A stretch of 64,000 nt of DNA from an uncultured Candidatus Saccharibacteria bacterium (GCA_964556325.1 CAZKVS010000001.1:67133-131132), one strand, 5' to 3'; counted from the first letter of the stretch, positions 4,403 to 63,637 are shown. Made by a program: numbers and translations. Notes: generated from the letters alone by a model not told the origin.

Positions 4403-4554
4403 ACGTAGTGCTTACAGGGCGCTCATACATGTAAAAGTTTTAAAACTTTTACATGTATTTTTTTATCCACTAGTAAATTAGTTTTTTTGTTGACATGTAC
4501 TGTGGTATACTTAAATAAATATTGAGTTATTAAAATTGAGAAACAAAAATTAGT

Positions 4555-5553: not shown

Positions 5554-5649
5554 TGGACAAGCATTGGAAGCGCCTCTCATCAAGGCGTTTTTTTTGTTAT
5601 TGACTATAGGTGTACGGTCGTATACTATACAAGAAATGACCACATAACA

Positions 5650-5737
5650 AATGTCTAATACCTAATTTCTAATGTCTAGTCGAAATGCACAAGACTGTCC
5701 GGACCATTAGGAATTAGATATTAGAAATTAGGTATTT
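5650..5737. repeat. Word-built intergenic palindrome (CTAAT words)
   Basis: aatgtctaatacctaatttctaatgtctag ... cattaggaattagatattagaaattaggtatt. Confidence 0.65.
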
Positions 5738-5749
5738 CTTTCTACCTGT

Positions 5750-7219
5750 ATGCAACGCATAATCATGCATATCGATATGAATAGCTACTTTGCTTCTTGC
5801 GAACAGCAGGACAATTTGGCGTGGCGCAATAAGCCGTTGGGAGTATGCGAGCATTTAGGGGGGATAATTATTGCGCCATCGGTCGAGGCGAAACGATGGG
5901 GGATTAAAACCGGGACGCCAGTGTGGGAAGCGCGAAAGCTGTGCCCTCAAATTATTTTGACTAAAACAAATCCAGATCGCTATCGATATTACACTGCCAA
6001 GTTTTTAAAAGTTTTTGAAGATTACACAGCAGATATTGAACGGTATAGTATAGACGAAGCGTTTTTGGATGTGACAAAAGTTTGCAATGTCCGGGCCTGT
6101 TCTCCCCCTCATGAGGGGGAGTTAGAGGGGGTCGTAGAACATGTCAATAATTCTCACATTACTATGACCTCCCTCAGCCCCTCCTCAAGAGGAGGGGGGC
6201 AGGAGAAAAGCTTGCCCTCAAGCGGGGGAGGACCGGATTTGGTTGACCCTTATGAAGAAGCAGCGCGTATTGCGAAAGAGATAAAGCAGCGCATGGAGCG
6301 GGAAGTGGGGGATTACCTGCGTTGCTCTGTGGGAATTGGCTGGAGTAAACTTATTGCAAAAATTGGCTCTGATATGCAGAAGCCCGATGGACTTACTGTG
6401 TTGCGCCCTATAGATAAGGCTTGGCTCTATAAGAAGTTGCAGTTGACGGATATGCCAGGTATTGGCACACGAATGGCTAGTCGTTTGCGAGAACGGGGTA
6501 TACGAACATTGGTGGACTTGCAGAAGTGTTCGGCTACTAGCCTACACAGTTGGTTCGGTATTATGGGCTATCATTTATGGTCTATGGGTCAGTTGGAGGG
6601 GCTGTGGCACGAAGATTTTTCCGAGCTTGCCCCTATAAAGTCGGTGGGGCATATGTATACCATTGCGGCAGAGTTTCGTAACCAGGTGGGTGTGGGAGAG
6701 CGAGTACTCTACAGGCTTTCAGAAATGGTTGCACGGCGGTTACGCACGCTGGGGGTAGGGGCAGTTGGACTGTCTGCACATGTGGCAGATAAAGAATATA
6801 ATTTTTTTGGCGGCCAACGACAGTTGGGTATCCCTACGGCAACAGGGCAGGATATTTTTCATGCTGCGAAACACGCCATAGTGGGAGAATTAGGCGGGGC
6901 GTGGCCAGCGACTATTTATCGCGTGGGGGTGACTGCGTTTGGCTTGCAGAGTAGCCAGCGCGTGCAGCTAAGCTTGTTTCCGGAAGTAAATAGACGCTTG
7001 CGTGCCGATGCGGCTTTGGACGCTATTAATCGAAAATATACCAAAGACGAGTGGCAGGAGGCACGAGAAAGAGCCTCTTTGGGGCGTACGCCTAGCAATA
7101 GAGGTGCTGACGCTATTTTGCCGGCTCCCGCATTTTTTGCCCAACGGGTTATTCGTGACTCCGCTGGGTTTGGTCGCATGCGGGAGTTTTCCGTTGCTGA
7201 TTATAAACGCGGCGATTAG
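5750..7219 (+). CDS. dinB: DNA polymerase IV (Y-family) carrying an in-frame ~48 aa insertion
   Basis: MHIDMNSYFASCEQ, IDEAFLDVT and LIAKIGSDMQKPDGL motifs. An extra GC-rich segment lies between the LDVT motif and the palm continuation (see findings). Confidence 0.85.
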   Translation: MQRIIMHIDMNSYFASCEQQDNLAWRNKPLGVCEHLGGIIIAPSVEAKRWGIKTGTPVWEARKLCPQIILTKTNPDRYRYYTAKFLKVFEDYTADIERYSIDEAFLDVTKVCNVRACSPPHEGELEGVVEHVNNSHITMTSLSPSSRGGGQEKSLPSSGGGPDLVDPYEEAARIAKEIKQRMEREVGDYLRCSVGIGWSKLIAKIGSDMQKPDGLTVLRPIDKAWLYKKLQLTDMPGIGTRMASRLRERGIRTLVDLQKCSATSLHSWFGIMGYHLWSMGQLEGLWHEDFSELAPIKSVGHMYTIAAEFRNQVGVGERVLYRLSEMVARRLRTLGVGAVGLSAHVADKEYNFFGGQRQLGIPTATGQDIFHAAKHAIVGELGGAWPATIYRVGVTAFGLQSSQRVQLSLFPEVNRRLRADAALDAINRKYTKDEWQEARERASLGRTPSNRGADAILPAPAFFAQRVIRDSAGFGRMREFSVADYKRGD

Positions 7220-11623: not shown

Positions 11624-12137
11624 ACATCATCCTTTCTGTTGCCGTTTCCGACATACAACCCTTGCAGCCGAAATTTGTAGCCACGGAGTCTGCTAACAAA
11701 ACAGTCTACAAAAGGTAACAAAAAACTTGTACCTTACCTATAGTGCAAGGCGCAAAACCCTTTCGGGAAAATACGCTTGATATAGCGCATGGACTTTTTA
11801 GTTTCCTTACACTATAGGTATGACACAAGTATAAAAACTTATTGCGTGCCGGTTTTGCGTTTTATGAGGGGGTCCAGCCCTATTTATTAAACTACTATAT
11901 AAATTATACCATGGCTTCCTTATTTTCTTCCTGTGGAAAACTTAAAAGTATCAGAAAAAGGTTTTGTATTTTTTTATGTTTTATAGTCGGTCATTTTTAT
12001 AATCCTACAGTACGAGGAGATAAGGCTAAGTTGTAGTAATGTGAATAAAGCCTAACATACGTTTTGCTCATTTGTTTATATAAAAAAGAAAAGGTGTCGC
12101 TGGCACACCTATTCTTTGATTTTTGGACGATGACTGT

Positions 12138-22509: not shown

Positions 22510-22591
22510 CCGAAAGTCTGGAAATTTAAAGAAGCCGGTAGTGTGTCACTGACACACTACCGGCTTCATTGTTTATAAACTTATTATAATT

Positions 22592-35277: not shown

Positions 35278-35360
35278 TAAAGGTCAAACTGAAAATCTTG
35301 CTAATTTATGCGTTTATTGTATAATACCTGAGCAATTTAGAAGCCGTATTTATAGTATAT

Positions 35361-35378
35361 TGCCCGGTAGCCAAGTGG
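35361..35378 (+). repeat. Duplicated 5' 18 nt of tRNA-Gln (tgcccggtagccaagtgg)
   Basis: Identical to 35711..35728. Confidence 0.7.
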
Positions 35379-35450
35379 TCCCGATCAATATACGGGATCT
35401 GCGATAAGGCATCCCGATGCCGCATCGGGACATTCGAAGGTTCGAATCCT
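35372..35450. repeat. Structured repeat R, copy 1
   Basis: caagtggtcccgatcaatatacggg...aaggcatcccgatgccgcatcgggacattcgaaggttcgaatcc. Two hairpins and a T-arm-like end. Copies at 35799..35872 and 35944..35981. Confidence 0.55.
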
Positions 35451-35693
35451 ATGTACCATACGTATATTTTGGAGAACCCTGAAGGTCGGTTATATATTGG
35501 TCAAACTGATAATGTTGGGAATAGGCTATTGCGGCATAATTCTAACATGGTAAAATCAACAAAGAATAAGGGGCCTTGGAAGCTAATATATAGTCGCGAG
35601 TTTGTCGCTCGGAGTGAGTCGGTAGCGTTCGAAACTTATTTAAAATCTCTAAAAAGTTCGAAGTACATTAAATCTTATATAGTTGGTTCTTAA
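35451..35693 (+). CDS. GIY-YIG nuclease family protein (UPF0213/YhbQ-like)
   Basis: YILENPEGRLYIGQTDNVGNRLLRHN ... PWKLIYSREF ... E. The start codon directly follows repeat R. Confidence 0.7.
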   Translation: MYHTYILENPEGRLYIGQTDNVGNRLLRHNSNMVKSTKNKGPWKLIYSREFVARSESVAFETYLKSLKSSKYIKSYIVGS

Positions 35694-35710: not shown

Positions 35711-35784
35711 TGCCCGGTAGCCAAGTGGTAAGGCAGAGGACTCTGAATCCTCCATCCTAGGTTCGAATCCTAGCCGGGCAGCCA
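35711..35784 (+). tRNA. tRNA-Gln (anticodon CUG), CCA encoded
   Basis: Folded by hand. Acceptor TGCCCGG/CCGGGCA, anticodon stem GAGGA/TCCTC with loop CUCUGAA, T-arm CTAGG-TTCGAAT-CCTAG. The D-arm GCCAAGTGGTAAGGCA is close to E. coli tRNA-Gln. Confidence 0.8.
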
Positions 35785-35798
35785 ATTAAGAATCTAAA

Positions 35799-35872
35799 TC
35801 AAGTGGCCCCGATTAAGATGCGGGGTCCTCGATAAGGCACCCCGATGCTGCATCGGGGCATTCGTAGGTTCG
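35799..35872. repeat. Structured repeat R, copy 2
   Basis: caagtggccccgattaagatgcgggg...aaggcaccccgatgctgcatcggggcattcgtaggttcg. Confidence 0.5.
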
Positions 35873-35943
35873 CCCGTCTCGGCCGAGGAGAGGGCTGCCG
35901 AGCCGAGGTCGGAAATCCTTCCACCCCAGCCAAATAAATATAA

Positions 35944-53819: not shown

Positions 53820-53863
53820 CCAAATACCACGTTTTTCGCGGCCGCGAAAAACGTGGTATTTGG
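53820..53863. repeat. Perfect 44 bp palindrome (22 bp arms, no spacer, GCGGCCGC core)
   Basis: ccaaataccacgtttttcgcgg|ccgcgaaaaacgtggtatttgg. Confidence 0.8.
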
Positions 53864-63577: not shown

Positions 63578-63637
63578 TGTCATTCCGGACGCTACAAGTC
63601 CCGATGCCGCATCGGGATGCGGGCGATCCGGAATCCA
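63578..63637. repeat. MITE-like element, short copy C, containing the TCCCGATGCCGCATCGGGA core
   Basis: tgtcattccggacgctacaagtcccgatgccgcatcgggatgcgggcgatccggaatcc. Confidence 0.55.

Follow-up and report, generated by a model that had tools for sequence, protein, structure and literature searches.

A GC-rich palindromic cassette in frame within dinB of an uncultured Candidatus Saccharibacteria bacterium, probably a composite copy of a dispersed hairpin repeat family

In a 64,000-nucleotide stretch of DNA from an uncultured Candidatus Saccharibacteria bacterium (GCA_964556325.1, CAZKVS010000001.1:67133-131132; the window, numbered from its first nucleotide), we examined a GC-rich palindromic block of 152 nt that lies in frame within dinB, the gene for the Y-family DNA polymerase IV (Pol IV). 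A sequence-only reading had singled out such a block, and 6088-6239 is indeed strongly self-complementary. The features of the locus are as follows, with L001, L002 and L003 denoting contigs used for comparison:

5750-7219, + strand: dinB, Y-family DNA polymerase IV, the host gene; 489 residues, Pfam IMS, IMS_HHH_1 and IMS_C
6088-6239, + strand: inserted cassette, 152 nt, encoding residues ~114-163; the blastn alignment to L002/L003 breaks at 6087 and resumes at 6240
6088-6265, + strand: recombination patch, of L001-type ancestry in an L002-type backbone, delimited by informative sites
6096-6117, + strand: left arm of the outer imperfect inverted repeat, pairing with 6215-6236 (22 nt, 82% complementary); the outer stem in RNA and DNA folds
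6102-6121, + strand: hairpin module 1, a perfect 10+10 palindrome, CTCCCCCTCA followed by TGAGGGGGAG, reading SPPHEGE; the core of the multi-copy family
6125-6137, + strand: outer arm GAGGGGGTC, then GTAG; arm and RTAG stand beside hairpin 1 in many other copies
6134-6165, + strand: AT-richer centre, particular to this dinB allele and different in other composite copies
6166-6175, + strand: inner arm GACCTCCCTC, pairing with 6125-6133 in RNA and DNA folds
6178-6197, + strand: hairpin module 2 (9+2+9), CCCCTCCTC-AA-GAGGAGGGG, reading PSSRGG
6215-6236, + strand: degenerate half-copy of hairpin 1 (CCCTCAAGCGGGGGAG), 88% identical to 6106-6121, also the right arm of the outer inverted repeat

The product of 5750-7219 matched the Pfam domains IMS, IMS_HHH_1 and IMS_C with E-values of 2e-36, 2.3e-10 and 9.2e-10, respectively, and Pol IV structures in the Protein Data Bank with E-values down to 1e-39. 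Its catalytic motifs HIDMN and SIDEAF are unbroken, with D9 kept in at least 90% and D102/E103 in 121 of 121 DinB orthologues, and its nearest DinB relatives come from metagenomes of the candidate phyla radiation (CPR), one of them named Candidatus Doudnabacteria. With the insert excluded, substitutions between dinB and L001 fall 41/22/190 over the three codon positions, and this excess at the third position (190 of 253) indicates that the gene is under purifying selection. Upon alignment with E. coli Pol IV (4ir1), query residues 3-111 and 167-332 paired with chain residues 3-113 and 116-276, and ~55 residues between the LDVT motif and the next helix had no counterpart.

Both blastn and codon-level comparison showed the cassette to stand in place of an unrelated 44-nt loop of L002/L003, and the swap from 44 to 152 nt amounts to a net gain of 108 nt, or 36 codons. 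The insertion that had been proposed is thus real, while the 48 extra codons assigned to it were too many, as a 44-nt loop was replaced; similarly, the alignment to the nearest relatives corrects its boundaries from 6086-6245 to 6088-6239. We measured a GC content of 57% for the cassette (65% in the arms, 31% over 6133-6167), compared with 49% for the rest of dinB and 45% for the window, which makes the compositional contrast modest: the arms are GC-rich as claimed, whereas the gene is richer than the ~45% given for it. In its anatomy, the cassette consists of two opposed hairpin modules, a variable centre, a 9-10-nt outer arm for each module, and a third, degenerate half-module. Two of the three palindromes originally put forward hold (10+10 and 9+2+9), while the third block, gccctcaagcgggggag, makes a poor hairpin and instead repeats one half of hairpin 1 in direct orientation (88%); in 100 shuffles, no 20-mer match was obtained. 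Folding of 6080-6250 as RNA yielded one long branched hairpin at -85.8 kcal/mol (z = -5.65), and the DNA fold of the cassette region had z = -3.95. Rfam returned only sub-threshold miRNA/whalefall noise for the cassette region, with no ribozyme or intron family, and a single tRNA and nothing else over the whole window. The core bounded by the inverted repeat (6096-6236) measures 141 nt, or 47 codons, and the only one of its six frames that is open is that of dinB; the encoded insert peptide includes SPPHEGELEGV and SLSPSSRGGGQEK.

The site of the cassette is a loop of variable length. Between the invariant residues N113 and D166, 69 of the 121 orthologues carry 12-13 residues, with a full range of 4-124, and no conserved segment of a length equal to the insert was found among them. 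In ~20 of the 121, this loop has been expanded independently by similar or other hairpin repeats. The same module type recurs in other expanded DinB loops (P0052, SPPVQEGLREV; P0062, NPPPFKEELGEV; and L047). In the last of these (L047 3457-3594, protein P0063), four tandem CCCCTCCTYGAARAGGAGGGG hairpins with a 39-nt period produce a 124-residue loop with PLLEKEGK repeated four times, an array from which it follows that modules can amplify locally. The same loop of L046 (~2350-2555, P0003) holds unrelated material, namely a GTCATTCCGG...CCCGGGATGAC palindrome (reading VIPASEPESR...) together with CGAATCTACGAAT direct repeats. Using AlphaFold2 with the orthologue alignment, we obtained, for residues 117-162, pLDDT values (the model's per-residue confidence) below 50 and a chain devoid of secondary structure, flanked by a confident strand and short helix after SIDEAF on one side and by helix 167-186 on the other. 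The insert is hence predicted to form a disordered loop between folded palm elements, in line with the surface loop in Pol IV that had been anticipated.

Comparison with close relatives shows that the window dinB is a mosaic. By blastn, L002 and L003 match the window at 98.8-99.6% identity as far as 6087; neither has the cassette, which is also absent from L046 and L004. The only other contig with the same cassette is L001, where identity to the window is 96.3% inside the cassette and 80.5% in the rest of dinB; at third codon positions, it is 96% in the cassette and 39-71% elsewhere (binomial p = 4e-9). Four of the five differences between the window and L001 inside 6088-6239 fall at first or second codon positions, indicating that the peptide is not what is conserved. 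Taking as informative those sites where L001 and L002 differ, we found 52 of 52 upstream of the loop to be L002-type, 7 of 8 in 6239-6265 to be L001-type (p about 6e-5), and the sites thereafter to be L002-type again. This pattern points to a cassette patch of ~180 nt that was exchanged by homologous recombination between lineages 20% diverged. Right of the loop (6240-7219), the window is 92.8% identical to L002, as compared to 98.8% on the left, and L001-type sites cluster anew at ~6950-7200, from which it follows that dinB also recombined further, beyond the cassette patch. Just 5' of dinB, a ~100-nt AT-rich long hairpin (5640-5745) is common to the window, L002 and L046 and sits between a conserved, promoter-like TTGACT (5600-5605)/TACTAT (5623-5628) pair and the start codon, while L001 (1-197) and L004 (7857-8000) carry a different palindrome with ACGAAT repeats at this site. 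The distribution of this 5' palindrome conflicts with that of the loop cassette, and indicates a second exchangeable cassette and cassette-like exchange.

Beyond the window, the modules belong to a repeat family. We scanned 185,579 genomes, one per species, for the 18-mer core TCCCCCTCATGAGGGGGA and obtained 41 loci, compared with ~9 expected for a random 18-mer, with strong enrichment in Doudnabacteria and Saccharibacteria. Exact copies of the core are present in three Doudnabacteria metagenome-assembled genomes (MAGs), at least 11 in JAHFJD01 (11 counted), 4 in MFEK01 and 1 in the third, and at four loci of Saccharibacteria MAGs; the copies elsewhere for which the sequence-only reading had proposed a search thus exist, alongside the one in the window. 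In many copies, the 9-nt arm GAGGGGGTC or the complement of this arm lies within a few bases of the core; the tetranucleotide after the arm is GTAG or ATAG in ~10 of 22 arms and GTGG, GCAG or ACAG in others, and in symmetric copies CTAY...RTAG are base-paired together. By blastn, similarity to L013, L029 and L037 extends over query positions 15-56. The composite layout (hairpin 1, arm, variable centre of 20-45 nt, complementary arm, CCCCTCCTC..GAGGAGGGG-type hairpin) recurs in the form seen in the window in L007, L013, L022, L032, L037 and L050, while hairpins of the module-2 type occur in L007, L032, L022, L023 and L050, and the dinB loop of L047 has a tandem run of four. Across the family, hairpins have stems of 9-11 bp and loops of 0-5 nt. 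The stems of sub-families differ in sequence, yet are perfectly complementary (CTCCCCCTC/GAGGGGGAG, CCCCTCCTC/GAGGAGGGG, CCCTCTCCC/GGGAGAGGG, TCCCCCCTT/AAGGGGGGA), and the conserved property of the family is thus hairpin potential. In 50 of 50 hairpins from sampled CPR loci, the pyrimidine arm came first. One MAG held 30 related hairpins in 67 kb, and the density reached ~4.5 per 10 kb in JAHFJD01 loci, chosen for having at least one copy, versus 0.3 in the window. A metagenome DNA scan for core, arm and GTCGT returned 6 loci, 4 of which duplicate known MAG loci.

Several further occurrences touch on the extent of the family. Two MAGs labelled Gammaproteobacteria (L006, at 7892, and L039, at 3421) carry the same core and arm, and L039 has GGGGGTCGTAG as well; these bins must be contaminated, or else the family extends beyond CPR. 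In L018 (5964, 6278 and 6567; Aquamicrobium) and in L009 and L016 (Rhizobiales), the 18-mer lies within a ~300-nt tandem repeat, and this alphaproteobacterial repeat is a different family with the same core palindrome. In L037 (3566-3700; also in L051 and L054), a nested insertion (…GCCAGAGGCTTCGGCGGGCA…) sits in the loop of the second hairpin, suggesting that insertion can target the hairpin loops themselves. A DNA-uptake sequence was ruled out as a candidate, the 7-mers not being over-represented outside the element in the window.

We found the copies of this family to be frequent inside genes, where they keep the host frame open. Core copies interrupt the Pfam domains of UvrC, Sua5/YrdC, Cyclase, RsmA, Lgt and GluRS, and further in-frame copies lie outside or between the best-matched domain stretches of ComEC, LysRS, a GT4 glycosyltransferase and an RNase_T-domain protein. 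Open reading frames (ORFs) spanning the core run on for hundreds of codons on either side, and 33 of the 50 hairpins from the sampled CPR loci lie deep within ORFs of at least 150 residues, with four in RsmA and three in UvrC. A TGA closes one of the core's three frames, and genic copies read in the SPPHEG or LPLMRG frames only. The open host frame, the 47-codon core and the avoidance of the stop-containing frame together argue that the insert is translated rather than removed.

[quoted passage not shown] Elements of this kind are known already, while the family appears to be undescribed: literature searches on palindromic, MITE or in-frame elements of CPR/Patescibacteria found no description. 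Copies would land across the genome, and those in genes would persist just where the frame stays open and the site is a tolerant surface loop; translation would there yield a disordered stretch, rich in Pro/Gly/Ser/Glu, with which the protein can cope. The site in question in DinB would be the loop right after the catalytic SIDEAF strand, and the cassette would have reached, or left, the lineage of the window as an allele by recombination, not transposition. In the first place, the modules presumably spread by some form of transposition, and the insert is likely to be neutral or nearly so for the polymerase.

A number of points weigh against such an origin. At up to 3 mismatches, the 64-kb window has no second copy of TCCCCCTCATGAGGGGGA and no similar hairpin, apart from a doubtful 11-nt remnant (ATGAGGGGGTC) at 11864-11874; with so small a number in 64 kb, the genome of the window harbours the family in a sparse or inactive state. 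The full 152-nt composite with this centre was found in the dinB of the window and of L001 only, and may have been built in place from modules. An exhaustive phmmer search of the insert peptide against 1.84 billion representatives returned two unrelated repetitive ORFs only, from which it follows that the full composite is not present in other protein families. In a set of 5.8 billion proteins, no candidate had three words in common with the insert peptide, an outcome that is uninformative. No transposase was found among ten window neighbours of dinB, nor among ten genes flanking intergenic copies, all of them housekeeping genes, and no target-site duplication is visible in the alignments to L002 and L004. 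The high nucleotide conservation could reflect constraint on structure, and translation of the insert is something that we infer rather than observe. Two of these points find an explanation in the history of the locus: a transferred patch accounts for high nucleotide identity without constraint as well as for the absent target-site duplication, which would also be lost because the cassette replaces the ancestral loop.

Among other explanations, a functional structured nucleic-acid element within the coding sequence, be it an mRNA structure that adjusts how dinB is translated or how stable its message is, or else a site for protein binding or recombination, would fit the very stable fold (-85.8 kcal/mol, z = -5.65), the 96% versus 80% identity to L001 with third codon positions included, and a blastn break that falls exactly at the loop (98.8% identity to the left, 92.8% to the right), so that the site coincides with a recombination junction. 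We consider it unlikely, given that the nearest relatives (L002, L003, L046 and L004) do without the cassette, that the identity is accounted for by a patch including 7 of 8 flanking informative sites, and that the same modules sit in many unrelated genes and in intergenic DNA; moreover, neither an Rfam match nor a promoter- or terminator-like T-run after the hairpins was found. Selection for the peptide itself, for instance as a lineage-specific partner-binding loop whose palindromic DNA is incidental, is less probable still. In its favour, the insert preserves the reading frame, purifying selection acts on the remainder of dinB, and eukaryotic Pol kappa has a long insertion at the equivalent position. 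However, 4 of 5 substitutions in the insert are at non-synonymous codon positions, the insert is missing from relatives that are 99% identical upstream and is predicted to be disordered, and other proteins read the same DNA in two different frames.

Equally improbable, in our view, is local growth of the loop by replication slippage or hairpin-primed duplication, with no mobile element involved and the likeness to sequences elsewhere a compositional convergence. The internal direct repeats D1 and D2 of the block and the four tandem hairpins of L047, at a 39-nt period in the same loop, are what such growth would leave behind, but it does not account for identical 18-22-mers with the 9-nt arm and RTAG in unrelated genes of several genomes, for the pyrimidine-first polarity of 50 of 50 hairpins, or for a cassette that is 96% shared across lineages 20% diverged. 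We give least credence to a segment that is missing from the mature protein, either cut out of the mRNA or passed over by the ribosome, the latter as with the GC-rich 'byp' elements of some yeast mitochondria. While a strong hairpin does lie in the coding region and translation is not directly evidenced, both the 141-nt core and the 108-nt length change are multiples of three, the only open frame of six is that of the host, genic copies elsewhere never use the stop-containing frame, and no ribozyme or intron family matched.

A dispersed hairpin repeat in CPR genomes can be compared with several known systems, of which RPEs were the one named by the sequence-only reading. RPEs (Ogata et al. 2000, summarised in PMC10969869 and PMC3733652) are palindromic elements of ~150 bp that are found in frame in many Rickettsia genes (PMC10969869). 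The present element is similarly palindromic, of ~100-150 bp and dispersed in a small genome, is frequently inserted in frame into unrelated housekeeping genes with an extra peptide compatible with the fold, and has no associated transposase known. In keeping with RPE-like behaviour, we found a multi-copy palindrome, in-frame copies in unrelated ORFs, and a fold-compatible loop site. By contrast, RPEs have alphaproteobacterial hosts and a conserved 150-bp unit, whereas the present element, whose host is placed in CPR by how its homologues and loci are named, consists of 20-nt GC-rich, pyrimidine-first modules with variable centres, and its encoded peptide is not conserved as a whole. Hence, the likeness to RPEs, and with it the earlier suggestion of an RPE-type insertion, seems to hold for behaviour and not for membership in the Rickettsia families proper (RPE-1 to RPE-10); the two are likened by description.

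In structure, the modules look more like short REP-type hairpins in doublets. REPs tagged with GTAG or CGTC have been described in Proteobacteria, Cyanobacteria, Chloroflexi, the Planctomycetes-Verrucomicrobia-Chlamydiae group and a few other phyla (PMC3733652), and those of their copies that lie inside genes for UvrABC, error-prone polymerases and tRNA synthetases encode 20-82 residues (Di Nocera et al. 2013, PMC3733652). REPs and REPINs (REP doublets) share with the modules the 20-40-bp stem-loops, often in inverted doublets that fold into larger structures, the tens to hundreds of copies per family, the intragenic copies in these same three classes of gene, and possibly a GTAG-like tetranucleotide beside the stem, here RTAG after the arm in ~10 of 22. 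With stems of 9-11 bp and loops of 0-5 nt, the repeated hairpins also agree with the form of the GTAG superfamily (stem 5-13 bp, loop 2-20 bp, tens to thousands of copies). They differ in that most REPs lie outside genes, while of the copies sampled here two thirds are intragenic; in that the GTAG of the superfamily is unpaired, whereas RTAG is itself paired in symmetric copies; and in that CPR is absent from the phyla reported for tagged REPs. No gene for a REP-associated tyrosine transposase (RAYT) was seen in the sampled flanks of the copies or of dinB, whole genomes not having been searched for it. The CPR elements thus seem to behave like REPs, while membership in the GTAG superfamily is unproven.

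The resemblance to MITEs and to yeast GC clusters is more limited. Bacterial MITEs (Correia/NEMIS, ERIC, RUP, Nezha) are non-coding elements of 70-300 bp with terminal inverted repeats. Terminal inverted repeats, folding into a long hairpin and the possibility of in-frame fusions are common to both, and repeats in the MITE range of 15-30 bp are present here (6096-6117/6215-6236; 22 nt, 82%). Two features of a MITE are nevertheless lacking, namely a target-site duplication and repetition of the full-length unit: neither such a duplication nor a parent insertion sequence could be identified, the two ends match imperfectly (82%), and only modules recur, not the whole unit. The GC clusters and 'byp' elements of yeast mitochondria are likewise mobile hairpins, short and GC-rich, that enter a genome poorer in GC, coding regions included, but they are organellar, and byps are skipped by the ribosome; the frame and ORF kept in the CPR element argue for read-through, unlike byp.

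These findings offer a source, at the level of DNA, for some at least of the unusual insertions in CPR proteins, and so bear on annotation, structure prediction and orthology calls. The family appears to be abundant and predominantly intragenic in CPR, and dinB, with its presence/absence alleles and recombinational transfer, offers a natural experiment in which alleles with and without the cassette occur in near-identical backgrounds and one loop was colonised several times independently; the locus can be used for studying the spread and the cost of a repeat. In sampled loci of some Doudnabacteria (chosen for the core), we counted ~3-4 modules per 10 kb, two thirds of them intragenic. It is conceivable, though we put it forward only tentatively, that CPR hosts a large and still active superfamily of pyrimidine-first GC-rich hairpins that spreads without RAYT, whose modules lie mainly in coding loops and are a principal source of lineage-specific insertions in CPR proteins, with recombination at permissive loops trading cassettes between lineages and favouring genes of DNA repair and translation.

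The window contains other palindromes. Two tRNA-like stretches (35352-35470 and 35780-35900) with a GGTTCGAATCC-type T-arm, uncalled by ARAGORN and Rfam, flank tRNA-Gln (35711-35784); the hairpin TCCCGATGCNGCATCGGGA is found in both, with a third copy at 63599-63617. Intergenic palindromes include a perfect 22+22 repeat at 53820-53863 (CCAAATACCACGTTTTTCGCGG followed by CCGCGAAAAACGTGGTATTTGG) and one with an 18-bp stem at 22531-22567, and a 17+17 AT-rich palindrome at 4425-4458 directly follows mreB.

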